From: Escherichia phage EP1
Length of the DNA stretch: 64,000 bases
Sequence record: OR892555.1
Strand: one strand, 5' to 3'
Shown: one piece after another, positions 2,780 through 45,419 of the stretch
How positions within the stretch are numbered: position 1 is the first letter of the stretch
How the letters are laid out: each line of letters starts with the position of its first letter
Notes under the pieces: generated by a model
The model's input: only the letters and a program-made list of their open reading frames with translations
What the model was told of the DNA's origin: nothing
Databases searched by the model: none
Translations under genes and position numbers: made by a program

Positions 2780-3042
2780 TTCTCTACAGATTTTTCTCTT
2801 GACTTTTGGGGAGAGGGGGAGTAAGAGGGGGAGAGGGGCAGGGCTGGCACTATCTACCTACCTGCACAATTCTAAAATGATTTTTCTTGCCCGACACTCG
2901 CCGGGTCTGCACGTTTTGAAAATGAAAAAGCTCTTTGGAGTCCACCTGCACAAATTGAAAATGAATTTTCCCTTTGGATTTCAAAATTTTCTCTACAGAT
3001 TTCTGTCCAGACTTTTACCTGCACAATTTTAAAATGAAAAAG
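2780..3042. repeat. ORF-free region with four copies of a ~20-25 bp motif (CCTGCACAAnTTnnAAAATGAA; 2861-2880, 2907-2930, 2945-2965, 3018-3042) and two copies of TTCTCTACAGATTT (2780-2795, 2989-3005)
   Basis: direct repeats at irregular spacing; no credible ORF on the transcribed strand. Confidence 0.6.
2808..2846 (+). repeat. polypurine G-rich tract (GGGGAGAGGGGGAGTAAGAGGGGGAGAGGGGCAGGG) with five G-runs
   Basis: read directly; stands out in an AT-rich genome. Confidence 0.6.
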
Positions 3043-3110
3043 CCCTCCTTACCTGAAAATTTTACCAGATAAGAAAGGCTTAGTCTATTGTGAATATGCT
3101 ACAGAGTTTC

Positions 3111-3893
3111 TTAGTTCTTTGCAGCTAAGAACTTGATATTGGAAATGTCTACAATTGCTTCAGCATCTTTCTCATTTGCTGCAAGAATGTACACATCAGG
3201 TTCACTTCCAAATGTCGCTGCACGTTGCATACTGCCTTTCAACGGTGGGGTAACTTGAGCGTTACTTAGAGACATTCTCTCAACCGGAGGGTTACTCCGA
3301 TGTACCTTGTTCTTACGATGCCTGAAGAGGGTAACTCCGTCTTCGTTGACAACGGCTACCCCTGCAAAGTATTGTGGTTCACTGTGATTACCCCATGTTG
3401 ACAGAGTATTAAACATTGCCTCTTCAAATACGTAAAGGTAAACATCAACATCTTTCAAGATGTGATTCATGATTACCACAACAGCTTTCGGGTCAAGTCC
3501 ACCAATACCTGCACCAATCATTGGGAGACCAACTTTCTTCAGTTGATTCACTTTGCAGTACTGGTTAAGGCTCAACAAAGCACTCTCAAGAGCATCGTAA
3601 CGAGCATCTTTACCAGTCTTCAACTGAGTGTACAGGTTAGCAATACGGCCTTGTTTAAGACGTGCTACAGAGAGTTTACCAAGCAGTTTCTGACAAGGTT
3701 TATGCTCTCTTCCTCCTGCTACACGGTAGACTTCGGCATCAGTTTCATAGGCTTTTGGGTAACCTTTAGAAATCTTGTCAGCAATACCTGCACCCATCAG
3801 GTTCATACAGTTGCAACCGTGACCAATGATATCAAACTTACCTTTTTCAAAGTCTGCGAAGATATCACCTTTGATGACTTTTACAATACCCAT
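3111..3893 (-). CDS. macro-domain protein (ADP-ribose binding/processing) with ~90-aa C-terminal extension
   Basis: N-terminal GDIF...DIIGHGCNCMNLMGAGIADKI and later GLPMIGAGIGG match macro-domain glycine-rich signatures. Confidence 0.8.
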   Translation of the reverse strand: MGIVKVIKGDIFADFEKGKFDIIGHGCNCMNLMGAGIADKISKGYPKAYETDAEVYRVAGGREHKPCQKLLGKLSVARLKQGRIANLYTQLKTGKDARYDALESALLSLNQYCKVNQLKKVGLPMIGAGIGGLDPKAVVVIMNHILKDVDVYLYVFEEAMFNTLSTWGNHSEPQYFAGVAVVNEDGVTLFRHRKNKVHRSNPPVERMSLSNAQVTPPLKGSMQRAATFGSEPDVYILAANEKDAEAIVDISNIKFLAAKN

Positions 3894-3894
3894 C

Positions 3895-4095
3895 TTACCA
3901 TTTCTCCCATGATTCTTTATCTTCAGAAGGTTTTACACGTTGACCTTCATGGTCTACCCAGATTCCACCACAACCTTCACAGAGTGTTGGCATAGCATAA
4001 CCAGCTTTGAACTCTTCTTCAGAGATAAGACCTCTCAAGTCTCCTGTATCACGTCCAAACAGTTCGATGGAACAATCTTTGCAGAAATCAGCCAT
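3895..4095 (-). CDS. small zinc-ribbon protein (two CxxC pairs)
   Basis: 66-aa ORF with CKDC ... CEGC. Confidence 0.5.
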   Translation of the reverse strand: MADFCKDCSIELFGRDTGDLRGLISEEEFKAGYAMPTLCEGCGGIWVDHEGQRVKPSEDKESWEKW

Positions 4096-4315
4096 TTGAT
4101 ATTACCTCTTGGAAGAATGTACCTTTCAAATCCCATTCAGCTTTATAATCAGTCAATGTGTTAGTATCGAACATTGTATAATATTTGTAATCACCATTCT
4201 TAAACTGGTCATGCAGTGATGGGTTGCAGAACGGAGCTACTGTATCCCTGTCCAAGAATACAGCACCAGATAACACTTTGCGTGTATTTTTACACCTTAC
4301 TAATATTGCTTTCAT
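4088..4315 (-). CDS. hypothetical protein
   Basis: 75-aa ORF in the minus-strand gene array. Confidence 0.45.
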   Translation of the reverse strand: MKAILVRCKNTRKVLSGAVFLDRDTVAPFCNPSLHDQFKNGDYKYYTMFDTNTLTDYKAEWDLKGTFFQEVISNG

Positions 4316-4616
4316 AAAGTACCTTCTCTGTTAACTCGTACAAGTCTACATGTTCAATGCCAGCAATGTCAATACCAAGTTTAGCATATCGCTCTTTGAT
4401 GCCTTCTTTATTTTGAAATATGAGACACCAATGATTTCTTAAAGACTCTTCCAGTTTATCTACACAATCATGAAAGGTTGGTGTGTCACCTCTTGTACCA
4501 ACCATTGCCACAACACCATAAAGAAACTCACCATTACCATATGTGACTTGTGCTACACCAATATCTTTCTCACTATCTTGGATGACAGCTACAAAGGTTT
4601 TACCGTTCAATTCCAT
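4290..4616 (-). CDS. hypothetical protein
   Basis: 108-aa ORF. Confidence 0.5.
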   Translation of the reverse strand: MELNGKTFVAVIQDSEKDIGVAQVTYGNGEFLYGVVAMVGTRGDTPTFHDCVDKLEESLRNHWCLIFQNKEGIKERYAKLGIDIAGIEHVDLYELTEKVLYESNISKV

Positions 4617-4773
4617 CAGAGACTACCTCTTCAATTTGCTGTAGAATTGCTTCTGAAGTTTCTTCCCACATCGTCATACTGTCAATATCACCACAACAAC
4701 TTTCTCCAGCAACGTTGTAACGTGCTTGACCATATTCTTTGATGAGTTCAATCAACTTCTCTTTGCTTGACAT
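4600..4773 (-). CDS. possible small acidic ORF (57 aa) missed by the ORF track
   Basis: ATG at 4771-4773 preceded by GAGGAAG; fills the 4616-4775 gap and overlaps the next start by 17 nt. Confidence 0.3.
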   Translation of the reverse strand: MSSKEKLIELIKEYGQARYNVAGESCCGDIDSMTMWEETSEAILQQIEEVVSDGIER

Positions 4774-4774
4774 G

Positions 4775-5044
4775 TTACTTCCTCGTTTTGAGAACTGCCA
4801 TAATTTCTTTGGTATCTTCTAAGAACCATGTGTAGTGATTCTCTTTTATTTCTGGATGAGTGTCAATCTTTAATTTGCAATCTCTTCCAGTATCTTTCAG
4901 TTGAGTTGTGATACCCTTCATAAAGATATGGCACATCACATCATCCATAACCATTGGCATGAAGTCAATGCGCATGTAAGTATCTTTTGGTCTTGGAAGA
5001 AGTAAATAACCTTCTGTATAGAACAGTTCTGTCTCTTGACTCAT
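4775..5044 (-). CDS. hypothetical protein
   Basis: 89-aa ORF. Confidence 0.5.
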   Translation of the reverse strand: MSQETELFYTEGYLLLPRPKDTYMRIDFMPMVMDDVMCHIFMKGITTQLKDTGRDCKLKIDTHPEIKENHYTWFLEDTKEIMAVLKTRK

Positions 5045-5310
5045 TGCTGCTTATTCCCTAACAAAATCATATCAATCAAATTATTGGCTTTCATCGTACA
5101 CTGATAGTACCCATCACGATAAAATTCAAGGGCTTGTGACAGGTCTGTGCCTGTATTACCCTTGACAACGTAGCGTGATTCTTCTTGAGTATACTTATCA
5201 CTTTCACTTACTTGGGAGTTTTTGAACGTAGAGTTCACTTTGTTCATTGAACACCCTGACATAAGTATCAGTAGCACAAATGTTATAAAACTCTGGCTTA
5301 GTCTTTTCAT
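5041..5310 (-). CDS. putative lipoprotein, candidate outer-membrane spanin subunit
   Basis: signal peptide ending in lipobox-like LMSGC; gene overlaps the 3' end of the preceding membrane-protein gene. Confidence 0.4.
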   Translation of the reverse strand: MKRLSQSFITFVLLILMSGCSMNKVNSTFKNSQVSESDKYTQEESRYVVKGNTGTDLSQALEFYRDGYYQCTMKANNLIDMILLGNKQQ

Positions 5311-5551
5311 ATGTCAATACCTCTTTTGTGTGTTTGTTTTTAGCAAGCACGTCTTTCAAATCATTTTTGTAACTGGAGCTAAGATTTGCTAAACCTTCTT
5401 GGTAAGCATCCTTAGCAACACTTACAAGTTTCTGGTTAGTTAACTCTGTTTGAGTGACTTGGTAATCCTTGTAAGAATAACCCCCCCAGACACCTACACC
5501 AATCAGAAAAACAACTATGAAAGCGGCTTGACAGAACTCTTTAAATTTCAT
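5204..5551 (-). CDS. type-II membrane protein, candidate inner-membrane spanin subunit
   Basis: N-terminal TM (AAFIVVFLIGVGVWGG) then hydrophilic domain; overlapped by the lipoprotein gene in another frame. Confidence 0.4.
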   Translation of the reverse strand: MKFKEFCQAAFIVVFLIGVGVWGGYSYKDYQVTQTELTNQKLVSVAKDAYQEGLANLSSSYKNDLKDVLAKNKHTKEVLTYEKTKPEFYNICATDTYVRVFNEQSELYVQKLPSK

Positions 5552-5567
5552 TTGTCAATCTCCTAAA

Positions 5568-5592
5568 ACGAAAAAGGCTCCCGAAGGAGCCT
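5568..5592 (-). terminator. rho-independent terminator (GGCTCC-cgaa-GGAGCC then U-run on minus strand)
   Basis: perfect 6-bp GC stem, tetraloop, T-tract read directly. Confidence 0.6.
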
Positions 5593-5603
5593 GTATCATA
5601 ACC

Positions 5604-6068
5604 TTAACCGAGGACTTTAGCAAGGACATTTGCAGCCATCGTCGAAGCTTTTGCAGCAGCAGCTACGCCAGCTTTGATAGTGCTATCCTTAATGGCAGAT
5701 ACCGTTGCAGCATCAGTAAAGAGATATGTGGTAGTTTGTGAACCACTTGTAAAGGAAAGCATAAGAGCAGTTTCCAGATTGAAAGAACGGTACGGAGCAC
5801 CGGACTGTACAATTCCTTTAGCACCCAACTCTGAAGCCATACCCATGTCATAGATGGTCATCAGGTTTTCTTTATGTGCTGTAGTAGAACCGACACCTTT
5901 AACGTGTTTTGAAACGTTCAGCAGAGCACGATATTCACGGATATCACCATCAGCTTTTACATTGACAGCACGAAAGATTTTGCCATCAAAGTTGCTTTTA
6001 ATGATATCACGAACAACCTGTGATTTGTTTGCTGATGCGTCGATAGCTACTGTAATAATGTTTTGCAT
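5604..6068 (-). CDS. hypothetical protein (154 aa, Ala/Ser/Thr-rich C-terminus)
   Basis: ORF with own terminator downstream; no recognisable motif. Confidence 0.5.
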   Translation of the reverse strand: MQNIITVAIDASANKSQVVRDIIKSNFDGKIFRAVNVKADGDIREYRALLNVSKHVKGVGSTTAHKENLMTIYDMGMASELGAKGIVQSGAPYRSFNLETALMLSFTSGSQTTTYLFTDAATVSAIKDSTIKAGVAAAAKASTMAANVLAKVLG

Positions 6069-10958: not shown

Positions 10959-10991
10959 AATAACTTTCCTCTTGGGTTGTTTGATGCAGAG

Positions 10992-11020
10992 ACTTTAAAG
11001 AACTCTGCACCGATTGTCAA
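10992..11020 (-). promoter_or_regulatory. sigma70-like promoter upstream of rIIA (TTGACA-17 nt-TAAAGT on minus strand)
   Basis: consensus -35, TAnnnT -10, GAGGA RBS 8 nt before the rIIA ATG. Confidence 0.4.
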
Positions 11021-24966: not shown

Positions 24967-25193
24967 TAAACCTCCTGAAACAGTTTCTGCTGAGACTCAA
25001 TATAATCCAGTCGGCCTTTCAGTTCAACACGTTTGTTAATCAGGTGCTGAATCTGGGACTCAAGAGCCTCCATTTCGGACTCCGTAGCTTCTTTAGCTTT
25101 GACAATTGCATCTTTCAGTGCTGCAATGTGGCTGTCAATTTTAGCTACGTGGTCATTATTAATTTTGTTAAATATCATCTTATTCTCTCTCAT
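24966..25193 (-). CDS. small coiled-coil protein
   Basis: 75-aa ORF, heptad-like charged sequence. Confidence 0.4.
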   Translation of the reverse strand: MRENKMIFNKINNDHVAKIDSHIAALKDAIVKAKEATESEMEALESQIQHLINKRVELKGRLDYIESQQKLFQEV

Positions 25194-25680
25194 TAAGTTT
25201 CATGATTTTATGGATTCTCTTCTCAGCATCTTCATAAGTCTCTTTAGTCAGAAACTTGATTGCTGCAATGTTTGCATTGTAGAAGAGTCGAAGCTTGGAG
25301 TCAATCCTTTTTGTCATGACGTCAAACTTATGTTGAAGGTTAGCTTCTCCGTAGACCAAACCACCTCGCGTATAATAAGTTTGCACAATATAGAAGTCAA
25401 ACTCTTTTTCACAGAAAGTTTCAATATCTTTCTTAATATACTCAGAAGAGGTCTGGTAAACCATCCAGTCACTCTCTTTTGTCACAATCTTACGTCTGGT
25501 CTTCCCAGCTACTTTCTTCTTGGTGACATTATTAAACTGCTTCTTACCAATGTAATACTGTCCAGTCTTTTTGCAGTACACTAAGTAAACGAAACCAAAA
25601 TACTTAGCGGGGTCAATCTCCCCGCACAGTGAAATCCAATGTCCATATTCATGGCAATTGCCAAAACCTTTAATCTTCAT
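25180..25680 (-). CDS. GIY-YIG family endonuclease-like protein
   Basis: FGFVYLVYCKKTGQYYIGKK matches the GIY...YIG spacing. Confidence 0.5.
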   Translation of the reverse strand: MKIKGFGNCHEYGHWISLCGEIDPAKYFGFVYLVYCKKTGQYYIGKKQFNNVTKKKVAGKTRRKIVTKESDWMVYQTSSEYIKKDIETFCEKEFDFYIVQTYYTRGGLVYGEANLQHKFDVMTKRIDSKLRLFYNANIAAIKFLTKETYEDAEKRIHKIMKLNERE

Positions 25681-26710
25681 TCATAACAGGCTCCCAACCA
25701 TATTTAGCAAAGGTGAAATCGTCTTTAGGGTTACGCTCTTGATAGGCAATCCAGAAGTGCTGGTGCATCAGTTCAAGAGGTGTTTTTGTAATCACCTGAC
25801 CATCCCACGATTCATAAGTGTATGACTCTTTCTTAGCGTAGAGTCCATAGATAGCATCAAGACACTCTTTATAGGTCTCTTTACCTTCCAGAGCGTTCAT
25901 TACAGCAACTTTCCCTGCACCCTTAAGGCCAAAGTAGTTATCTGCGTTATCTCCTGCTACAGCTTGATAGCAGAGGAATTTAAAGCCTACACCAACAGTC
26001 TTTTTAGCTTTTGGCTTAGACTTGATAGGGCAATCCCAAATATCACCTACATTGCCATCTGCAATGAAAATCAGAGGGGCTTTCTCGTAAGTCATATCAA
26101 TACAGTAAGTTCCTTCCGCTTGGCGAAGGTCTTTGTCAATGCTCATAAGAGCAGCCTTCTTACCCATCTTCTCAGCTTTTGCAATAACAATGGAGTCAGC
26201 TTCAAAGCCACCTTTGAGAAGCTTAAACTCAGGTCGTGACAGAAGATACTCACGACAAGCAACTAAATGCGTAGGGGTTACTGATTCTTTACGGTTACCT
26301 TGATACTGGTGTTCAAGACCTTTAATGTCTTTGTGTTTGTGTACACCTTTTTCAGTAAGGTATCCCATCCAAGTTCGCTCTTTACCAACAACCTTCAACC
26401 ATTCCTGAAGAACTTGCTGAGTTGCCATAATAGCTTCTTTTTCACTCTTAGCTTCTTTCCAAGACTGTCTTTCCCATTCATCTTCATCGAATGCAAGACC
26501 AAGTTCCTCTGTCAGAACTCTCTGGTCAGATAGCCATTGATTAGCATCTTTAGCACTCTCAAAAGCATCAGACTCTTCAGCAGTGAGTTTATTCACATAC
26601 TTGTACTTTGCTTTCTCAACGACACAGGCTCCCTTGTAAGCGATACTGTCAGAGTCAATAAAGACATGTGTCACAGTATCTGGGAGTTTTGTTAATGTGT
26701 ACTTTTCCAT
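25670..26710 (-). CDS. 5'-3' exonuclease / flap endonuclease (RNase H-like)
   Basis: HVFIDSDSIAYKG N-terminal motif and H3TH-like AGDNADNYFGLKGAGKVAV. Confidence 0.7.
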   Translation of the reverse strand: MEKYTLTKLPDTVTHVFIDSDSIAYKGACVVEKAKYKYVNKLTAEESDAFESAKDANQWLSDQRVLTEELGLAFDEDEWERQSWKEAKSEKEAIMATQQVLQEWLKVVGKERTWMGYLTEKGVHKHKDIKGLEHQYQGNRKESVTPTHLVACREYLLSRPEFKLLKGGFEADSIVIAKAEKMGKKAALMSIDKDLRQAEGTYCIDMTYEKAPLIFIADGNVGDIWDCPIKSKPKAKKTVGVGFKFLCYQAVAGDNADNYFGLKGAGKVAVMNALEGKETYKECLDAIYGLYAKKESYTYESWDGQVITKTPLELMHQHFWIAYQERNPKDDFTFAKYGWEPVMNED

Positions 26711-26723
26711 TTATATCTCCAAT

Positions 26724-26755
26724 ACGAAAAAGCCCCATACTAAGTACAGGGCTTT
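26724..26755 (-). terminator. terminator-like hairpin (AGCCCC...GGGGCT) then U-run
   Basis: imperfect stem with T-tract; lies between SSB-like gene and exonuclease gene. Confidence 0.5.
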
Positions 26756-26772
26756 GTAGTAACTACTGAGAA

Positions 26773-27627
26773 TTAATCTTCAGTATCAAAATCTTCTTCT
26801 TCGTCGTCATCTGGGTCTGGCATCTCTTCGTCGTCGTCGTCGTCAGAGTTAGTATCTTCAGAATCCTTCGCATCTTCTTCGGTAATTTCACCGTTATCTT
26901 CAACGCCATCCAGACCAAGCAGAGCCAGTTCATCTTCATCCAGTTCAGGCTCACCGTTACCACCTGTACCACCAGTGTACGGAACCAGAGTATCAATGAT
27001 AAACTGTTCCTGAATCGGCTTAGTCAGAACGTTGCTTTCAAAAGTGTAGAAGTGAGTTGCAAGAATCACACTACCAAATGAACCGTTACCTACTGCGATA
27101 TCTGGGTGAATAATGTCATAAGTTTTGTCGTCATCGTGTTTATCAGAATGTTGAGCCTTGATTTTCTTCATCGGCTGTTTAACTGCAACACGCTTACCGT
27201 TAACCTCTTCAATCAGCATAACAGGGAATGACTGTTTCGCTGTCCAGACCGCACCATCTTTATAAGCAGCAGCGCGACTTACTTTCAGAATGTGATAAGT
27301 GTCTGCTTCGAATGGTGGTTTGCAACCAAACTTCTCTTCGAAGTCATCTGCATCAACCGCTTCAGTTGTAACTTTATCCCAACCATCAGGATTCTTTTTA
27401 GACTTGGTGAACTCTTTAAAGAGTTTGTTACCGTCTTTTGCCAGAATCGAAACGCTGTAGTTACAGTCCTTGCCTGGGAATTTCTTATCAACTGACTTAC
27501 CTTTTCCCGGACGTGGGATAGTGTTCAGGTAGTAGAACCAAACATCTTTCAGCAAATAACGCAGAGTCTGACGTTCAGTACCGTTGTATTTTTCTACCGG
27601 AGATTTCATTTTAACAACTTTAGACAT
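26773..27627 (-). CDS. single-stranded DNA-binding protein-like, with acidic C-terminal tail
   Basis: C-terminus DDDDDEEMPDPDDDEEEDFDTED; start set to ATG at 27627 with GAGGA RBS. Confidence 0.5.
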   Translation of the reverse strand: MSKVVKMKSPVEKYNGTERQTLRYLLKDVWFYYLNTIPRPGKGKSVDKKFPGKDCNYSVSILAKDGNKLFKEFTKSKKNPDGWDKVTTEAVDADDFEEKFGCKPPFEADTYHILKVSRAAAYKDGAVWTAKQSFPVMLIEEVNGKRVAVKQPMKKIKAQHSDKHDDDKTYDIIHPDIAVGNGSFGSVILATHFYTFESNVLTKPIQEQFIIDTLVPYTGGTGGNGEPELDEDELALLGLDGVEDNGEITEEDAKDSEDTNSDDDDDEEMPDPDDDEEEDFDTED

Positions 27628-27712
27628 TCTTAAATCCTCTTTCTCAAAATTATTTCTTTCAAACTTGAAGGAGTACAATCTTACAGACTTCATACTCCCT
27701 TGTCAAACACTT

Positions 27713-27850
27713 TTAAGCAGATTTTTTAGCTGCTTTACGTGCTGTCTTACCAGTGCGAACACGTTTTGCTTCATAGTGTGCAGCAGATTTACCAGCAGTT
27801 GCTTTCAGTGAATCGCCAAATACTTTTTCAAACGCTTTAGAATGTTTCAT
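27713..27850 (-). CDS. possible small basic protein (45 aa) missed by the ORF track
   Basis: ATG overlaps upstream stop as ATGA; GGAGA RBS; translation MKHSKAFEKVFGDSLKATAGKSAAHYEAKRVRTGKTARKAAKKSA. Confidence 0.35.
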   Translation of the reverse strand: MKHSKAFEKVFGDSLKATAGKSAAHYEAKRVRTGKTARKAAKKSA

Positions 27851-28143
27851 ACAACTCTCCGATAAATTTCGTATTCAAATGTTTTGTCAGTTAACCTAAA
27901 CATATAGCCAGTATCGTTGTCAATAGAAACTAAGATTCCATCAATGACACTCTCAAGTTCTCTATATCCTAACTCAACCGTATGTCCTTTGTTAATGAGT
28001 ACTTTACAGAAATTGTCTATACGAGTCAAGCACTCTTTTTTAAATTTTACTGAATTTGTTTCTTCATAGAATGGCGTAAAACCCTCCTTAAGATACGCAT
28101 CAGTCAGTTTCAAACGGGCAGTCATCGTCTTCTCCATCTTCAT
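27847..28143 (-). CDS. hypothetical protein
   Basis: 98-aa ORF downstream of primase-helicase. Confidence 0.45.
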   Translation of the reverse strand: MKMEKTMTARLKLTDAYLKEGFTPFYEETNSVKFKKECLTRIDNFCKVLINKGHTVELGYRELESVIDGILVSIDNDTGYMFRLTDKTFEYEIYRRVV

Positions 28144-30097
28144 TTAACACTGGTGGAATGGTAGAACTTTGACGTTGCTCTTGAGTGTAAACCTCTCCAG
28201 TCTCACGGTCAAAGTCTTCGTCATCATAATGTGGCATAGAGTCATCATAGTGGTCATCGGCTTCACCAATACCAAACTGCTGACGAATATTCTCTGCTGC
28301 ACCATCAATATCAACACCGCTACCAGCAGCCTTGATAAGACGGCCTGTATCTGGATTATACCAAGTGTGACCAGCAATACCAGTTGACTTACCATGACGA
28401 CGGCATTTAGTTAACTTGATTTTTGTCAAGTTTTTCTTAACAGGGTCTGGGTCAACCTTGTTACGCATTAACAGAATGTTGTTCATGGAAATCTGGAAGT
28501 ATGCACCAGAACCCTTGATATCCTCTTCAGAAATATCACCACCTTCAGAGTTAGCTTTCTGACCGCCTGCACTCTTACGAACGTGGCAGACGTTTACCTG
28601 TGCATATTGGTAACGCTTGCAACGACGCAACAGTTCAGACAAGACTTCTTCTTCATCCGTATCAGAACGTGACAGAGCCAGTGTGATAGGGTCAAGAATG
28701 ATAATCTTACAGTCTAAGCTGTTAACCAGATAGTCAACAAACTCTAACAGGTTATCTTGGTCGATTGCCCCTTGGTGGTCAACGATATGGATACGACGAC
28801 CAGCAGACAACTCATCATGTGCAACCTTGATTTCATCCCAATTACGTTCATCGTAAGGAATCTCTGAAATCTGTTTACTCAAGTGAATTGCACAAAGCAT
28901 CTCCATTAACTCTTCATAAGTATCTTCTACAGGAATCACGCCAATATTGTAATCAGTTTCCTTCCAAGCAGTGTAAATCATTTCACGGGTGTAAGCTGAT
29001 TTACCTACTGAAGATGGTGCTGCCAGAGTTGTAATCTCCCCTAAACCGTAACCACCATAAGTCAGCCTGTTCAAGTCTCCAAAAGATTCTGGGAATGGAA
29101 TCAGTGGAATCTGACCACGATTCTTCATTGCATCAAAACCATCTGCGAAGTTCTTGATACCAGCAGGGCAGTAACGAGGTGCATTATAGATACGCTGTTT
29201 AAAACCTTCCAGTACTGTATCTTTCTCTTTGTAAAACTTAGTCCACCACTCATTCAGGTCTTTGACACCTTCTGGATACTGAAATAAGCGAACCTTCTCA
29301 ATCGGAAGAATACCAGCAGCCTCTTTAGTGGCTTTTGCACCTGCTTCATCGTTATCAAAGCACAGGTAAATCTCATCAAACGATGTGATGTACTGATAGT
29401 TGTCTTTGATAGACTTAATGTTTGCACCTGATGGAACAGATACGTGACAGTAATTCTTACGACGAGACTTGTCTTTGATTGCCAGAGAAGTCATGTAGAT
29501 TGCTGTAGCACATTCCATCTCACCTTCCCAGATGAATAGACGGTTGCCACCTTCTGGAGCAATCCATGAACCGAACATTGCCAGTTCACCTTTAATATCC
29601 CCTACACCACCTGAGAAGTCTTTAAGCTTACCACGAAGATGCTCTTTCGGATGGTCTTCTGGGTAACGGTGACGAACACGATAACCTACATGTTCAAGTT
29701 TTCCATTTTCATCTTTCTTGTAAGTTGGGTAAAAGTGTGCATCAATCTCACCTTCACCATCTACATCAACCTTTATTCCAAGACGGTCGAGAACCTTTGC
29801 AGGAATCTTACGGTCTTTCAAATCCATCGCTTCAAGGTTATCTTTTACATCGTCTAAATCCATACCACGGAAAGTACGATTTTTATTGTCTGAACCAGTA
29901 GAATAAGTACTCACAATTTGCCCTTTATCAAAATCCCACTCTGGAAAACCCTTGTTGCAACTAAAGCAAGTCATCGAATAAGAATCATCGTCATGATGAT
30001 AGATTGAACCAGCATCTGATGAACCACACTTAGGGCAAGCACAATGACCAACAAACTGACCAGCTTCCTTCAATTTACGACCTTTAGACATTAGCAC
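28100..30097 (-). CDS. bifunctional DNA primase-helicase (T7 gp4-like)
   Basis: N-terminal zinc ribbon CPKCGS...CFSCNKG, TOPRIM-type DNDEAG, Walker A LAAPSSVGKSAYT. Confidence 0.85.
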   Translation of the reverse strand: MLMSKGRKLKEAGQFVGHCACPKCGSSDAGSIYHHDDDSYSMTCFSCNKGFPEWDFDKGQIVSTYSTGSDNKNRTFRGMDLDDVKDNLEAMDLKDRKIPAKVLDRLGIKVDVDGEGEIDAHFYPTYKKDENGKLEHVGYRVRHRYPEDHPKEHLRGKLKDFSGGVGDIKGELAMFGSWIAPEGGNRLFIWEGEMECATAIYMTSLAIKDKSRRKNYCHVSVPSGANIKSIKDNYQYITSFDEIYLCFDNDEAGAKATKEAAGILPIEKVRLFQYPEGVKDLNEWWTKFYKEKDTVLEGFKQRIYNAPRYCPAGIKNFADGFDAMKNRGQIPLIPFPESFGDLNRLTYGGYGLGEITTLAAPSSVGKSAYTREMIYTAWKETDYNIGVIPVEDTYEELMEMLCAIHLSKQISEIPYDERNWDEIKVAHDELSAGRRIHIVDHQGAIDQDNLLEFVDYLVNSLDCKIIILDPITLALSRSDTDEEEVLSELLRRCKRYQYAQVNVCHVRKSAGGQKANSEGGDISEEDIKGSGAYFQISMNNILLMRNKVDPDPVKKNLTKIKLTKCRRHGKSTGIAGHTWYNPDTGRLIKAAGSGVDIDGAAENIRQQFGIGEADDHYDDSMPHYDDEDFDRETGEVYTQEQRQSSTIPPVLNEDGEDDDCPFETD

Positions 30098-32575: not shown

Positions 32576-35275
32576 ATGGAAAACGTAGATTTTGAAAACT
32601 TGCACTTGGTAGGTGATACAGAAACTGATGGGTTACTCCTTGAGTTCACAAAAGCACATGTAATGGCATTTGCAGATTACAAAGATGATGGTGATGAACC
32701 TGCTGTGTGGGTATTCACCGATGAACCTATTCTTGGTCACAAATGCACTAAGTACATCAAAGGTGGTCTTCGTGAAGGTGTAGAGTTTGCTCTCAAGGCA
32801 AAGCGTCTCTGTATTCATAACGGTCTTGGCTACGACTGGTGGGTGTTCAATCACATTGCACCGGACTTATGGAACTTTGACAATCCGAAGTGTAAACCTT
32901 GGGGAGACTTCTTTCAGGATTCTCTTATTCAGTCTCGTGTTCAGTGGATGGATAGACCTACACCAAAAGGTTACAAAGGTGCGCATGGTTTGGCTGCATG
33001 GGGTGCTCGTGTTGGTGTTCGTAAACCAGAGATTGAAGAGTGGGGTGTTTGGAATGCTGACATTCTGAACCGTGTTGTTGAGGATATTCGAATCAACGCC
33101 AAAACTAAACGTGCTCTTGATAACGAATACCTGAAGTTGAAGAAGTGTGGTGTAGACACTTACGAAACCTACATGCGAGCTAAAGAAACATCTTTCTGGA
33201 TGAGTCAGCAAGCCATCAACGGTTGGAAAGCTGATATTGAACTTATGCAGTTCCATGTCAAAGAACTTGACAGATTGACTGATGAATTAGCTGCTGAAGT
33301 TGAGCCTCATCTACCACCGACTATTAAGACGAAAGGTAAAGTTACTGGTGAAGAGTTTGCAAGGGCTTGGAACGAGTATGTTGAGACATTTGGTAAAGCA
33401 GATGGTCTGAAGCGCATCACTAAGTATCCAAAAACTAAGTTCCGTCAGCAGGTTCGTAATGGTGAGATGCAGACTTACGCTATCAAACCTTTTGGTAAAC
33501 CAACTACCAAGATTTTCAACATTGAGAAGCGTAACTGCTACACTCCAACTAACACGGTTACTGGAGAAGAGTACAAAGAAGGCTTCGTGGCAATGAAAGA
33601 TGCTCGTGCAGTTTGTAACGAGTTGAATGCTGCGATTGATAAGAAGTGCAAAGACTGGAAACCAGTTAAGACCGTGAAGACTGTGAAGTACTACAATAAT
33701 CACGTAGTAAATCACTTTGAACTTGAGTCAAGTCGTTACACAGGTTTGATTGATGCACCTTATACACCAATTGAGTTCGAAGTTTCACGCATGACTCAGG
33801 TTGCGGTTGTGAAGGATTATCTGAAAACTCTTGGCTGGATTCCTGATGACTGGAACTACAAGAAAGACTCTGATGGTCGTCCGGTGAAGGTTTGTCGCTT
33901 CAAAGACAACAAGAAGATGATTCGTAAACATCCGAAATGGCAAGAGATGGTGGAACGTTGCGGATTGAACTATGTTGAACATGAAGGTGTACAGTATATC
34001 GAACACAACTGGTCTGTGAAGAAGTACACAGATTTGCTTGAGCCTTGCTTGATTCGTACTTCACCGAAACTGACTGAATCATCTTACGATACAATTGAAG
34101 GTGAACTTGGACAGAAGATTGCGAAGTACTACACTTTGATGCACCGACGCAGAACTATTGAGAACTCAAAGGATGATGAAAAAGGTTGGTTAAACCAGAT
34201 TCGTCCAGATGGTCGTTTGAGTGCTGGTGCAATGGTGTTTGGTACTTCAACTGGACGCATGACACAATACGGAATTGTGAACGTACCTTCTGGTGCTGCT
34301 GTTTACGGTGAACCAATGAGGGCAGTCTGGATTTGTGAAGAAGGAACAAACGTAGTTTCCGTTGACATGAACTCTGCACAGCTTGTTTTACTGTGTAACT
34401 TTATGGGTGATAAAGAGTTCACCAAAGCGGTAACTCAGGGTAAAGAAGAGATTGAGTTTATCCGTCAGGAAGATGGCAGATATTACTGCAAACACTTTGA
34501 CGAATACCTGAATCCAGAAGTTGATAAGTATCTGCGTTATGACTCTGAAAACGACTTGTACGTAGTTTACTCAGGCACTGATGCTCATACACTGAACAGT
34601 ATCTACTTCAGCTTGAACGAAGAACAAGATATCTTGACTTGTCGTATGACTCAGGATGAAAATCTTCTTCACGAAATTAGTAAAGGTCGTAAAAAAGCTA
34701 AGAATGGTATCTATGCGTTACTGTTCGGTGCTGGTGATGAAAAGTTTGCTAAAACGATTAAAGCTGCGACTACTCAGGAAGGTGCATTGACTAAACAGAC
34801 TTACTTTGTGCGCTTGCCGAAGATTAAGAAACTGTTAGATGACTTGGAAGCTGACTTTAAGGCAACTAAGAAAGCACTTGAAGAGGTGTTTGGTAAAACT
34901 GCTGCAATTGCTAAAGGTGGTTTTGTCAAGGTAGCTGGAGCATGGTTGTGGTGTAAGTCTCCACACAAACTGTTAAACTATTTGCTGATGGGTTCAGAAA
35001 GTCAGGTTCAAAATGAGGCAATTAACCTTGCTTGTCGTAGAGCCTATGACGAAGGGTTGATGAAATTGAATGGACGTAAGCCAGCTATCGGCGCTAGGCT
35101 TCTTCTGGCATACCACGATGAGAATAGTTGGGAATGTCCAGAGAGTATGACTCAAGAAGTTAAAGCTATTACTGACTGGATGTACGGACAGGCTTCTAAA
35201 AACCTTGGGCTAAGGAAAGAAACTATGGTAACAGGTACTGGTAAGGTTGGTAAGAGTTGGTTGGAAGTGCACTAA
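32576..35275 (+). CDS. DNA polymerase, family A, with 3'-5' exonuclease domain
   Basis: 899 aa; exo motif VGDTETDGL; polymerase motif A DMNSAQLVLL, motif B KNGIYALLFGAG, motif C YHDE. Confidence 0.9.
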   Translation: MENVDFENLHLVGDTETDGLLLEFTKAHVMAFADYKDDGDEPAVWVFTDEPILGHKCTKYIKGGLREGVEFALKAKRLCIHNGLGYDWWVFNHIAPDLWNFDNPKCKPWGDFFQDSLIQSRVQWMDRPTPKGYKGAHGLAAWGARVGVRKPEIEEWGVWNADILNRVVEDIRINAKTKRALDNEYLKLKKCGVDTYETYMRAKETSFWMSQQAINGWKADIELMQFHVKELDRLTDELAAEVEPHLPPTIKTKGKVTGEEFARAWNEYVETFGKADGLKRITKYPKTKFRQQVRNGEMQTYAIKPFGKPTTKIFNIEKRNCYTPTNTVTGEEYKEGFVAMKDARAVCNELNAAIDKKCKDWKPVKTVKTVKYYNNHVVNHFELESSRYTGLIDAPYTPIEFEVSRMTQVAVVKDYLKTLGWIPDDWNYKKDSDGRPVKVCRFKDNKKMIRKHPKWQEMVERCGLNYVEHEGVQYIEHNWSVKKYTDLLEPCLIRTSPKLTESSYDTIEGELGQKIAKYYTLMHRRRTIENSKDDEKGWLNQIRPDGRLSAGAMVFGTSTGRMTQYGIVNVPSGAAVYGEPMRAVWICEEGTNVVSVDMNSAQLVLLCNFMGDKEFTKAVTQGKEEIEFIRQEDGRYYCKHFDEYLNPEVDKYLRYDSENDLYVVYSGTDAHTLNSIYFSLNEEQDILTCRMTQDENLLHEISKGRKKAKNGIYALLFGAGDEKFAKTIKAATTQEGALTKQTYFVRLPKIKKLLDDLEADFKATKKALEEVFGKTAAIAKGGFVKVAGAWLWCKSPHKLLNYLLMGSESQVQNEAINLACRRAYDEGLMKLNGRKPAIGARLLLAYHDENSWECPESMTQEVKAITDWMYGQASKNLGLRKETMVTGTGKVGKSWLEVH

Positions 35276-42881: not shown

Positions 42882-45419
42882 TTACGCCGTTCTAACCCAT
42901 GCCATCAATCTGATAAACAAGTTTACAACACTGAATGCTGAACCAGAACCTGTACCACCAGTGTCACCACTAACTGTGTGGGTGTGAGCACCAATACCAA
43001 CCGTGTGAGCGTGGTTACCAGCAGAAGCAGCAGTACCAGAGATTGTGTGGGTGTGAGCACCACCTGCATCAGTGTAACCTGGCCCTGTACCAAGCTTACC
43101 ACCACCACCACCAGAGTAGTGAGTAGAGTTCTGACCAATCCATGAGATAGCATGTTTGTGACTACCAGCAGATGCAGCAGAACCACTTACAGAGTGGGTA
43201 TGAGCACCAGTCGTGTTAGAGGTCTTAGTACCATAGTCAAAGCTTGACGTTGTAGCTGAGAAGCTGTGAGTATGTGAAGGAAGGTGTCCTACAGCTAATG
43301 TCACAGTATCTGCACCACCAACTGTCTTAACATCTGAACCATTCGCTGCACCGATTCTGACAGTTCTACCGACACCTTCATTTAGATACGTCCAAGTTAA
43401 TCCCGGAAGGGTAGTATTAGGGTTCTGGTTAGTTGCAAACCATGTTACAATACCTACAGGGTAAACTTTCTTAAGGTCTGTAGAGTCTGTAACAGCATTT
43501 GCAATCTTCTGGTCAACTTCAGTTTTAGTATATGCACCAACATCTGATGCTGAAGGTTTTAACAAGCTTGTGTAAATAGACTGGACACTACCAGAAACCA
43601 TGCTAGTTGGTGGTGTTACAGAACCTTCAGGTGTTGTATACATAGATACTGCGGCATTTGAAGTGCATCTCCAACTAAAGCTAATACTGTGTGCATAACC
43701 ACCAGATTTAGCGTAGATATCATAACTATTGCTACCATTCGAAACATAACCAATATCAGTAAACAATGGACTAGTGTCAGTACTATTCCAAAGAACTGCC
43801 GTGATACCAACAGGTGTAGAGTTGTTTCCAGTCCTTAAAATAATACTAGTAGGCGCGGCTTGTGCTGTTGAGCCAGCATTATAACCAGCACCACCTGCAA
43901 ACCTCATTTCTACAGTTGATGTACTCTGTGGCATAACTACGGTTGCCACCTTAACCCATAAACCATTAGTACCTGAGCTATTTGGACTAATAGACCCAAT
44001 CATTTCATATCTTAAGTCTGATAAACTTTTTGTATAATATCTTGAATCAAAGTTTGCAAAGTCTGAAGGTTTCACCTGTCCAGTGATATTCACACTTTTA
44101 TTGGCGACAATCTCATTAGCAAGCTGCAAAGAACTACCAAGTATGTGGTTTTGCAATGACAGAGTTGTTGAACCATCTGAGCCAACACCAATAAACCACC
44201 TGTTAGTAGTACCATCTGAGTCTCTTGAGATGATATAAGAGGCTTTACCTGCACTGCTTGGCATTAATACTAGACCCTGACCATCATTCTTAATGGTCTG
44301 TACACCAGTAAAGGTGTTTGCAGTATTGTTCCTTGCAATTGTAGAAAGTGTTGCAGCAGGAATAAATCTGGCATCAATGTTAGACCAATCTGTAGGCTGA
44401 ACCTGTCCAGTGATTGCAAGACTCTTGTTAACTCTGACCATGTTATCAAGTAATACATAGGTATCATTTGAGATGTTTGTCAATACAACTGAGTTGCTAC
44501 CATCTGCATAGTTACCTACAGCCCACTTCATAGAAGCATCTGTGTTCTGACCTTCAATGTAAAGTGCTTTACCACTTGTCAAGTTCTTCAGAGTTAATCT
44601 TGCACCATCACCAAGTAACGTTGTAGTACCTCTGAGGGTGTTGTTTCCAGTAATCGTGTTAGCTGCTGCCAACTGAACAAATCTTTGGTCTGCTGCATCA
44701 CGAGTATAGAATCTTGCATCAAAGTTTGCGAAGTCTGAAGGAACAACCTGTCCAGTAACTTGAAGACTTTTGTTAATACCTACAGAACCAGTACCAAGAA
44801 CAATATTAGTATTCTGTTTGGTGTTTGCAATAGTAACGTCAGAACCAGAACTCAAGTTACCAATTGTGAACCTTACAGCGTTTGCTGTATCACGACCTTC
44901 ATAATACAATGCAGCCGCAGCAGTGTTCTTCAAAGTCAAACCAGCATTATCTGTCTGGAAAATCTGACTTGCTGTAAAGGTATTTTGAGTTCCCTTGATA
45001 GCAAATCTTGCATCGTTCTCATCATTAGTTCTCATCCCAAGTTCATTGGGAGATGGCTTATTCAGAGTGTGATAAACAGTTGCACTTCTTGAAGCATCTG
45101 CAATAGTCAGTTTAAGACCATTTGCATTAAGCTTGAAAGTTTTTGCAGTGTCACCGAAGACAATTTCGGAGTTACCTGTTGGGTCAAGTAAATCTTTTCC
45201 CCCATAGGTAAGCTTTACAATTCCTAAATTACCTGTCATGGTTCCACCAACTAATTGCAGAAATCTTTCCAGTCTAAATGATGCAAGGAAATCCGCATAA
45301 GTCATTCTACGGTCTTCATCACCTAGCATCTCAGTTCTTTTCTTAACTCTGACATGCAATAGGTCATCAGAACGAATCTCACTAATCGAGTTTAATTCAC
45401 TCAATTTAAATTCTGCCAT
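42882..45419 (-). CDS. long tail fibre protein with His-x-His repeat C-terminal tip
   Basis: 845 aa; C-terminal GAHTHS...HKHA...AHTHTISG...NHAHTVGIGAHTHTVSG repeats. Confidence 0.75.
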   Translation of the reverse strand: MAEFKLSELNSISEIRSDDLLHVRVKKRTEMLGDEDRRMTYADFLASFRLERFLQLVGGTMTGNLGIVKLTYGGKDLLDPTGNSEIVFGDTAKTFKLNANGLKLTIADASRSATVYHTLNKPSPNELGMRTNDENDARFAIKGTQNTFTASQIFQTDNAGLTLKNTAAAALYYEGRDTANAVRFTIGNLSSGSDVTIANTKQNTNIVLGTGSVGINKSLQVTGQVVPSDFANFDARFYTRDAADQRFVQLAAANTITGNNTLRGTTTLLGDGARLTLKNLTSGKALYIEGQNTDASMKWAVGNYADGSNSVVLTNISNDTYVLLDNMVRVNKSLAITGQVQPTDWSNIDARFIPAATLSTIARNNTANTFTGVQTIKNDGQGLVLMPSSAGKASYIISRDSDGTTNRWFIGVGSDGSTTLSLQNHILGSSLQLANEIVANKSVNITGQVKPSDFANFDSRYYTKSLSDLRYEMIGSISPNSSGTNGLWVKVATVVMPQSTSTVEMRFAGGAGYNAGSTAQAAPTSIILRTGNNSTPVGITAVLWNSTDTSPLFTDIGYVSNGSNSYDIYAKSGGYAHSISFSWRCTSNAAVSMYTTPEGSVTPPTSMVSGSVQSIYTSLLKPSASDVGAYTKTEVDQKIANAVTDSTDLKKVYPVGIVTWFATNQNPNTTLPGLTWTYLNEGVGRTVRIGAANGSDVKTVGGADTVTLAVGHLPSHTHSFSATTSSFDYGTKTSNTTGAHTHSVSGSAASAGSHKHAISWIGQNSTHYSGGGGGKLGTGPGYTDAGGAHTHTISGTAASAGNHAHTVGIGAHTHTVSGDTGGTGSGSAFSVVNLFIRLMAWVRTA

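Follow-up and report, generated by a model that had tools for sequence, protein, structure and literature searches.

The closest described relatives of the gene considered here are the T7-type SSBs (proteins that bind single-stranded DNA), namely gp2.5 of phage T7 (PDB 1JE5, PF21265, PHROG 112) and the Enc34 ORF6 and DUF2815 proteins (5ODJ/5ODK/5ODL, 4KLK, 4JG2; PF10991). A long helix located directly after strand beta2 and capping the barrel is a hallmark of this type, and aromatic residues stack on single-stranded DNA (ssDNA) in the Enc34 SSB (PMC5686142). The tail of T7 gp2.5 interacts with the gp5 polymerase and with the helicase (PMC4124056, PMC5686142), its contact on gp5 being the front basic patch K587/K589/R590/R591 (PMC12339929). 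In T7, the ending of the helicase-primase tail also resembles that of the SSB, gp2.5 finishing in ...DEDGDF and gp4 in ...SNDTDF. A comparable gene is carried by Escherichia phage EP1 (record OR892555.1), of which a stretch of 64,000 nucleotides (nt), called here the window, was analysed. This gene, on the minus strand at 26773-27627, very probably encodes the replicative SSB of the phage, a divergent member of the T7-type (gp2.5 / Enc34 ORF6 / DUF2815) superfamily.

According to the list of open reading frames (ORFs) and the translation, the minus-strand ORF 26773-27627, stop codon included (26773-26775), yields a product of 284 amino acids (aa) ending in ...SDDDDDEEMPDPDDDEEEDFDTED. Both the ORF and this C-terminus had been quoted, exactly, in an earlier reading made from the letters of the window (the sequence-only reading). 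The gene and its parts are as follows:

26773..27627, minus strand: coding sequence of the SSB-like protein (ORF list, translation; PHROG 3877 at an expect value (E) of 1e-163)
27636..27639, minus strand: ribosome-binding site (GAGG), upstream of the start ATG at 27627 by 9-12 nt (direct sequence reading)
26971..27627, minus strand: basic, predicted OB-fold core, residues 1-219 (isoelectric point (pI) 9.0 and charge +6 over residues 1-222)
26899..26952, minus strand: conserved linker motif E-L-D-E-D-E-L-A-x-L-G-L-D-G-V, residues 226-243 (family alignments)
26791..26898, minus strand: acidic tail, predicted disordered, residues 244-279, the length-variable part (composition, indels)
26828..26844, minus strand: (GAC)5 tract coding D262-D266 (Tandem Repeats Finder, period 3, 5.7 copies, 17 nt)
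26776..26790, minus strand: C-terminal tip F280-D-T282-E-D, family motif [FW]-x-T-x (F280 and T282 invariant among close members)

An alternative in-frame ATG at 27693, in the longer stop-to-stop frame, was rejected: it lies inside a promoter-like site, and all homologues begin MSKVVKMK.

The relationship with T7-type SSBs emerges from profile comparisons. A word-indexed protein search returned the narrow family only (12, then 23 proteins). The tails were removed before the profile search, avoiding low-complexity matches, and the resulting core profile, run exhaustively by hmmsearch over 1.84 billion representatives, gave 128 relatives at E <= 1e-3, 27 of them at E <= 1e-10, most being 200-250 aa long. 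Nearly all of the aligned relatives (113/116) match phrog_3877, the PHROGs family of 'unknown function' to which the EP1 protein itself is assigned. More than half (65/116, best E 1e-17) match phrog_112, described as 'Gp2.5-like ssDNA binding protein and ssDNA annealing protein', while PF10991 (Enc34_ssDNA-bd) is matched by nine of the 116 and PF21265 (SBB_T7) by eight. Bridging proteins match both PHROG families over one domain, as P0030 (phrog_3877 9e-21, phrog_112 6e-12) and P0046 (3e-16 and 2e-14); P0023, a marginal outlier ending in ...DDSDLPF, matches them at 1.5e-16 and 1.4e-4, respectively.

With hhalign, the superfamily profile and T7 gp2.5 align over 96 columns (93% probability, E 3e-7). 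In this alignment, PPF104-106 is paired with MPF94-96, GNGS180-183 with GGGS144-147, Y194 with Y158 and F196 with W160, and the final strand plus 'YTGG' is paired with 'TFGGG' right before the tail. In the mutational literature on T7, Y158 of gp2.5 is an aromatic residue that contacts ssDNA by stacking. Y194 is conserved in at least 90% of the family members and F196 is invariant, and Y194 would be the ssDNA-contacting aromatic residue that characterizes T7-type SSBs. Homology to gp2.5 is thus indicated at the transitive, profile level, and the 65 matches to PHROG 112 together with the gp2.5 alignment uphold the SSB-like identity that the sequence-only reading had proposed.

A predicted structure was also compared with known folds. 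The second of two AlphaFold2 models, covering residues 1-245 and built on a 72-sequence alignment (64 homologues coming from a third search with the superfamily alignment), reached a predicted local distance difference test score (pLDDT) of 90.1 and a predicted template modelling score of 0.84, with 206 residues above 90 and values below 50 in 220-227 and 242-245 only. When this model was compared with the PDB by Foldseek, the top nine chains were all T7-type SSBs (E 2e-4 to 4e-2, probability 0.85-1.00), followed by noise; they belong to the DUF2815 entry 4klk, the Enc34 SSB 5odj/5odk/5odl, T7 gp2.5 1je5, and 4jg2. Named matches in BFVD include 'DNA helix destabilizing protein', 'DNA binding protein', 'phage ssDNA-binding domain-containing protein', 'DUF2815' and 'SsDNA binding protein'. 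When superposed, the predicted OB-fold core fits gp2.5 or Enc34 ORF6 more closely than it fits other OB folds. A non-OB fold had been set beforehand as the refutation of the sequence-only reading; the predicted model matches instead the OB folds of T7-type SSBs.

Several observations weigh against this assignment. At E <= 1, Pfam returned nothing for the window protein or for 20 alignment members, apart from a TFIIA match on the acidic tail that was rejected as a spurious artefact of the tail. No relevant sequence match in the PDB was found by phmmer or by family profiles, a T7 gp2.5 query reached E 2.4 in phmmer and was also not significant in BLASTP, and hhalign of the narrow family with T7 gp2.5 gave a probability of 2.5%. 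Regarding structure, a first AlphaFold2 model built on 11 close homologues was unusable (pLDDT 42.6), and the good model relies on an alignment containing remote gp2.5-like relatives. The Foldseek template modelling (TM) scores are modest (0.30-0.58), with 129-138 residues superposed, because the window protein is larger and carries extra elements. Finally, where T7-type SSBs have the long capping helix, the model seems to show a pair of short ones: one at 66-73, behind the second long strand, and one at 93-100, which follows a strand at 87-92. The window protein has no phrog_112 match at E <= 0.01 in PHROGs, no direct match to the curated models PF21265 SBB_T7, PF10991 Enc34_ssDNA-bd or PHROG 112, and no detected homology to the OB domain of the bacterial (E. 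coli) SSB.

Compared with T7 gp2.5, the EP1 protein shares the conserved G-x-G-S and the Y194/F196 pair equivalent to Y158/W160, a core of basic character, a disordered acidic tail that bears an aromatic residue close to its end, and a genomic location among homologues of gp4, gp5 and gp6. It differs by a structure-based identity of 14%, the absence of a direct Pfam or phmmer match, and a core about 30 residues larger. These additional residues correspond to N-terminal strands and to an insertion at about 134-164. Relative to the superfamily, the model adds three N-terminal strands (about residues 1-22), a beta extension that is clade-specific, and about 24 residues forming extra strands between 134 and 164. 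Other differences from gp2.5 are the two short helices predicted in place of the long capping helix, an additional conserved helix motif at 226-243, a longer and more acidic tail, and an aromatic residue followed by x-T-[DE] instead of being the last residue. With respect to the Enc34 ORF6 and DUF2815 proteins, identity is 10-14%, the tail tip differs, and PF10991 matches nine of the 116 remote relatives and not the window protein.

The gene is surrounded by other replication genes. On the minus strand, the order is a deoxynucleoside monophosphate kinase gene, the primase-helicase gene, two small ORFs, the SSB-like gene, the 5'-3' exonuclease gene and a GIY-YIG homing endonuclease gene, and the polymerase gene is transcribed divergently:

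28100..30097, minus strand: T7 gp4-like primase-helicase (28% identity to T7 gp4A, E 5e-46; Toprim_2, DnaB_C, PHROG 239)
27847-28143, minus strand: small ORF of 98 aa, PHROG 4982 (PHROG match), its start overlapping the end of the primase-helicase gene
27713-27850, minus strand: small ORF of 45 aa, very basic, PHROG 4424, between the primase-helicase gene and the SSB-like gene
25670..26710, minus strand: T7 gp6-like 5'-3' exonuclease, directly downstream of the SSB-like gene (PHROG 107 E 4e-62; BLASTP to T7 gp6 E 5e-6)
32576..35275, plus strand: family A DNA polymerase of 899 aa, divergent transcription (BLASTP to T7 gp5 E 7e-13)

The polymerase homologues carry PF00476, and the copies of phiSUSP1 and Felix O1 are annotated as DNA polymerase. 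The gene order is kept in all lineages compared, among them phages of Erwinia, Hafnia and Yersinia and six metagenomic contigs whose homologues are 41-76% identical. A local search through all six-frame ORFs of the window and of Felix O1 (complete genome) yielded no E. coli-type SSB and, in each of the two, a single ORF of the gp2.5 superfamily. Because homologues of gp4, gp5 and gp6 lie nearby and a single gp2.5-superfamily ORF is present per genome, the phage is predicted to have a T7-like replisome in which the SSB-like gene is the gp2.5 counterpart. The Felix-O1-like replication module was previously without an identified SSB, and this assignment would complete a gp4/gp5/gp6/gp2.5-like replisome in a myovirus of about 86-90 kb.

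Equivalents of the two small ORFs occur in Felix O1, in Yersinia phage P778 and in several metagenomic relatives, and they are absent from Kolesnikvirus and from the Hafnia phage. The GIY-YIG (SegE-like) homing endonuclease gene lies after the exonuclease gene (25180-25680, minus strand), and Felix O1 has an HNH endonuclease in the corresponding slot, which seems to be filled by different mobile endonucleases among relatives.

The tail of the EP1 protein is extremely acidic, as the sequence-only reading had claimed. Residues 226-284 (59 residues) include 34 Asp or Glu and one Lys, and the computed charge of the 62-residue tail (223-284) is -33. For comparison, the tail of T7 gp2.5 has 42 residues and a charge of -16, about half that value. 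Acidity, lack of structure (pLDDT below 50 at the modelled end) and an aromatic residue close to the end, the features expected of a T7-type tail, are thus all found. In the linker, D232, L234, L237 and G238 are invariant among close members, G238 also in a 20-member alignment, and both AlphaFold2 models predict a short helix at 231-236 with a pLDDT of about 60.

The coding repeat is shorter than initially described. Whereas a (GAC)n/(GTC)n run had been claimed over about 26770-26870, Tandem Repeats Finder and a regular-expression scan identified one perfect period-3 tract in the tail coding region, of 17 nt at 26828-26844, the remaining acidic codons being a mixture of GAA, GAT, GAC and GAG. 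The pure tract is specific to the EP1 isolate, since its closest relatives code the equivalent Asp run by interspersed GAC and GAT. The term 'microsatellite' was therefore dropped, as the pure repeat amounts to these 17 nt alone and is not kept in relatives. Elsewhere in the window, perfect trinucleotide tracts with five or more copies are limited to one, (ACC)5 / (CCA)5 at 43098-43113.

Variation of the tail length was checked across relatives. The protein has 280-287 aa in the window and 28 IMG/VR relatives, with 285 aa in 19 of the 29, and cluster members range from 281 to 289 aa, plus one variant of 303 aa. The tail thus varies by a few codons inside acidic runs (280-289 aa; 303 aa once). 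All differences are in-frame and located within Asp, Glu or Gly runs; they amount to one to three codons or to the duplication found in the 303-aa variant. The helix motif, an [LM]-P-x-P-D-D element and the tip are constant across length variants. In the 303-aa variant, P0239, from the Erwinia/Kolesnikvirus-type cluster, 16 residues of the acidic tail are duplicated in tandem (DNDI[SP]EYGDDDEDGDD); the copies are DNDISEYGDDDEDGDD and DNDIPEYGDDDEDGDD, and this is the largest tail-length change observed. Regarding the suggested slippage, small in-frame indels do occur in acidic runs and a maintained microsatellite is not seen, so that the idea is weakly supported. The length variation foreseen in the sequence-only reading is right in kind, small in size and independent of a maintained microsatellite.

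A tip of the form [FW]-x-[T/V]-x is present in 60/60 full-length family members, V replacing T in one, with the variants FDTED, FKTE, FETDDE, FETE, FETA, WETN and FKVE. In the wider superfamily, 80 of 116 members end in F or W, often as ...D-[IL]-P-F, and 25 more have an aromatic residue within the last four positions. An aromatic residue at or near the C-terminus is thus a superfamily hallmark, and the Ounavirinae clade, to which EP1 belongs, retains it and adds x-T-[DE] behind it. The tip of E. coli SSB, ...DFDDDIPF, is comparable in having an acidic run that ends in a hydrophobic or aromatic docking residue. Many remote relatives end, as bacterial SSB does, in D-x-[IL]-P-F, and the Kolesnikvirus homologues end in DDDDVPF-KTE.

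The primase-helicase carries the same type of tip. Its C-terminus reads ...DGEDDDCPFETD, or in a longer form ...NEDGEDDDCPFETD, with F-x-T-[DE] as the last four codons (28103-28114). Like that of T7 gp4, it is acidic with an aromatic residue mirroring the SSB tip; it differs in having 78 residues after the conserved TGRL/TGWL motif, vs 24 in T7, and in ending with P-F-E-T-D and not with a terminal D-F. Of the window's 593 six-frame ORFs with 40 aa or more, three have [FWY]-x-T-[DE] within the last eight residues; they are the SSB, the primase-helicase and one non-acidic ORF without other support. Likewise, among 743 ORFs of Felix O1, the tip is found in an acidic context only in the SSB and the primase-helicase. 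Across lineages, the tips are:

Suspvirus (window, L001, L002): primase-helicase CPFETD, SSB DFDTED
Felixounavirus: primase-helicase CPFETE, SSB DFDTED
Mooglevirus: primase-helicase CPFETD, SSB DFETDDE
Lineage L038: primase-helicase CPFETE, SSB APFETE
Lineage L040: primase-helicase GFETE, SSB DFDTEDDEE
Erwinia Kolesnikvirus: primase-helicase IPFRTE, SSB VPFKTE
Lineage L041: primase-helicase IPFKTE, SSB IPFKTE
Lineage L036: primase-helicase EFQTA, SSB NFETE
Lineage L037: primase-helicase GFVTA, SSB DFETE
Yersinia P778: primase-helicase QFSTT, SSB EFETD
Hafnia phage: primase-helicase without tip, SSB EWETN

Of the 11 lineages, 10 thus have an aromatic-x-T on both proteins. At position x, Felix-like phages show an acidic residue in each of the two, and Kolesnikvirus-like phages K or R in each. 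A second common motif was not supported: the likeness of the SSB linker helix ELDEDELAxLGL to '..QQFGIGE..' or '..SQLGFDAP..' in primase-helicase tails was noticed by eye, and a hidden Markov model of the SSB motif matched no primase-helicase above noise (best E 9.5).

In the mechanism proposed, the basic OB-fold core (about residues 1-219) would bind ssDNA, as suggested by its fold and by conserved aromatic and basic residues such as Y194. The 62-residue tail, of charge about -33, combines a conserved short helix (predicted), a length-variable spacer rich in Asp and Glu, and an invariant F-x-T-[DE] tip. By analogy with T7, this tail would fold back on the DNA-binding cleft, tuning ssDNA binding, and would dock on other replisome proteins. 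Both the SSB and the primase-helicase end in an acidic F-x-T-[DE] tip, so that they probably dock on the same replisome partner and probably share a single site there, either in competition or in a handover, the best candidate being the phage family A DNA polymerase. The putative role of the tail as a partner recruiter, suggested in the sequence-only reading, is indirectly supported, because the primase-helicase ends in the same C-terminal tip.

The conserved internal-aromatic tip, common to the SSB and the primase-helicase, is the most interesting specific result. It may represent a docking peptide of a new type in Ounavirinae, made of an acidic run and [FW]-x-T-[DE] with an internal aromatic residue, present on the SSB and the primase-helicase and switched at x in Kolesnikvirus; this proposal is tentative, with somewhat less than even odds. 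If it is true, the pocket would be unlike the 'terminal Phe plus free carboxylate' pocket of T7 gp2.5/gp4 and of the bacterial SSB C-terminus, and the two tails would be rivals for a single binding site, presumably one of the polymerase, that coordinates helicase coupling with SSB displacement. The common conserved tip would offer a compact, testable handle on replisome cohesion, and a natural variant to compare with the intensively studied T7 tail-polymerase interaction.

Further observations, on the tail and its tip, weigh against the main reading. F280 is invariant yet located 5 residues from the end, unlike the terminal aromatic residue of T7 gp2.5 and E. coli SSB. The change of charge at x probably arose only once in evolution, and is thus suggestive and not a statistical proof. 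In the Hafnia phage vB_HpaM_SarahDanielle (L032), the primase-helicase (2959-4875) ends in ...DGNTGEVLS, without a tip; no alternative frame restoring the tip was found in that gene, and the SSB homologue there retains W-E-T-N. Finally, in the window polymerase, the stretch aligned with KWKRR, the T7 patch, is AIAKGGFVK, and conservation of the patch is not seen, so that, if the polymerase is the partner, the docking site is not conserved in sequence.

In the alternative that survives best, although it is rated as rather unlikely, the protein is an SSB whose tip binds another hub (a host protein or the product of a small intervening ORF) or acts in cis on its own DNA-binding surface. In its favour, the T7 basic patch is not conserved in the window polymerase, the tip is unlike the T7 and E. 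coli types with their terminal Phe, and candidates for a partner lie between both genes in the form of the two small conserved ORFs (PHROG 4982 and the very basic PHROG 4424). A cis effect has a parallel in the T7 tail, which also competes with ssDNA for the cleft according to a reference cited in PMC5686142, but a purely cis role leaves the presence of the same tip on a helicase of different fold unexplained. For the choice of the partner, T7 precedent favours the polymerase (PMC4124056, PMC12339929).

It is improbable that the main role of the protein is to mediate single-strand annealing or recombination together with the adjacent 5'-3' exonuclease, the host SSB coating the ssDNA of the fork in its place. 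The description of PHROG 112 does include 'ssDNA annealing protein', the gene is directly upstream of that of the gp6-like exonuclease, and T7 gp2.5 stimulates gp6 via its acidic tail (PMC4124056); however, both roles reside in one T7 protein, so that this reading differs from the main one in emphasis only. Besides, the tip is common to the primase-helicase and not to the exonuclease, and no other phage SSB candidate was found in the Felix O1 annotation or in the six-frame ORFs of the window and Felix O1. The remaining alternative, a protein that does not bind DNA and is either an OB-fold scaffold with a DNA-mimicking acidic tail (e.g., anti-restriction, decoy) or an enzyme such as a 'methyltransferase', could draw on the very acidic tail (-33) and on one GenBank record naming a homologue methyltransferase, and is highly improbable given that the protein has no Pfam match to an enzyme family, methyltransferases included, its core has a basic pI of 9, the aromatic residue aligned with T7 Y158 is conserved, the fold matches specifically T7-type SSBs and the gene is within the replication module in every lineage.

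The replicative SSB favoured here is rarely named as such in databases. Among the matches listed (100 of 301 records), GenBank names are 'hypothetical protein', 'unknown' or 'gp066', and once 'methyltransferase'. The copies of phiSUSP1 and pEC-M719-6WT.1 are labelled 'hypothetical protein', as is the Felix O1 homologue in RefSeq (ORF104), an annotation in which no SSB is named anywhere in the genome. UniRef A0ABX6PT92, from Salmonella phage SapYZU01, is a 90%-identity cluster member named 'Single-stranded DNA-binding protein', all other named members of the three 90%-identity clusters being hypothetical or uncharacterized. The SSB assignment is thus already present in at least one automatic annotation. 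The methyltransferase label concerns the homologue at 4986-5837 of Yersinia phage vB_YenM_P778 (L033) in PP693300.1. It looks like a misannotation, because no methyltransferase family in Pfam matches any member of the family. A search of the literature available found no paper on an SSB of Felix-O1-like phages. This divergent T7-type SSB would have been overlooked by current family libraries, and the assignment supplies a rule for annotation pipelines. The gene is also a candidate for the phage SSBs sensed by defence systems, several of which are described as sensing such proteins, e.g., retron Eco8, in work cited in PMC12916289.

Felix O1 and its relatives are widely used as typing and therapy phages. 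By tblastn against 50,697 phage records, the SSB-like gene was matched in 301. Identity in the part left unmasked by BLAST is 99-100% to phiSUSP1, SUSP2 and pEC-M719-6WT.1 (covering residues 1-254 for phiSUSP1 and pEC-M719-6WT.1). For Felix O1 and about 240 records of Felixounavirus and Mooglevirus the value is 90-95%, and for the homologues of Erwinia (Kolesnikvirus), Hafnia and Yersinia phages it is 45-54%. Because of the 99-100% identity to the first group, vs lower values elsewhere, the window is assigned by sequence to the Felix-O1-like genus Suspvirus, subfamily Ounavirinae.

Expression signals predicted around the gene are the following:

27678..27706, minus strand: TTGACA-17-TAAGAT, a sigma-70-like promoter located some 50 nt upstream of the ATG (consensus scan, 10/12 matches)
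26729..26755, minus strand: intrinsic-terminator-like hairpin, 12-bp stem followed by a stretch rich in T, located after the stop codon and before the exonuclease gene
27670..27698, minus strand: inverted repeat GGAGTA / TACTCC around the -10 hexamer (sequence comparison across lineages)

Most of the lineages compared have an equivalent promoter-like site upstream of the gene, and a hairpin with a T-run occupies the same position in nearly all of them, with differing stem sequences. Raw counts of promoter and hairpin sites in the region are not above those of shuffles. As both signals hold their position across lineages, they suggest that the SSB gene is a self-contained, strongly expressed unit, the function of these signals being predicted. 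A promoter and a terminator of its own would fit a protein required in stoichiometric amounts.

The inverted repeat may serve as an operator, form a hairpin in the DNA or, in read-through transcripts, act as a site of RNA processing. Its arms differ among lineages while complementarity is kept, as in AGAGTA/TACTCT, GTGAGGGTA/TACTCTCAC, GGAGGTA/TACCTTC and GGTGGGTA/TACTCACC. A relaxed scan of promoter plus inverted-repeat sites gave five, the shuffle mean being 1.0 (maximum 5). Two more promoter-like sites of the window have the same layout on the minus strand, at 10969-11020 (TGCAGAG/CTCTGCA) and at 2172-2223 (GGGGCTTA/TAAGCCCC).

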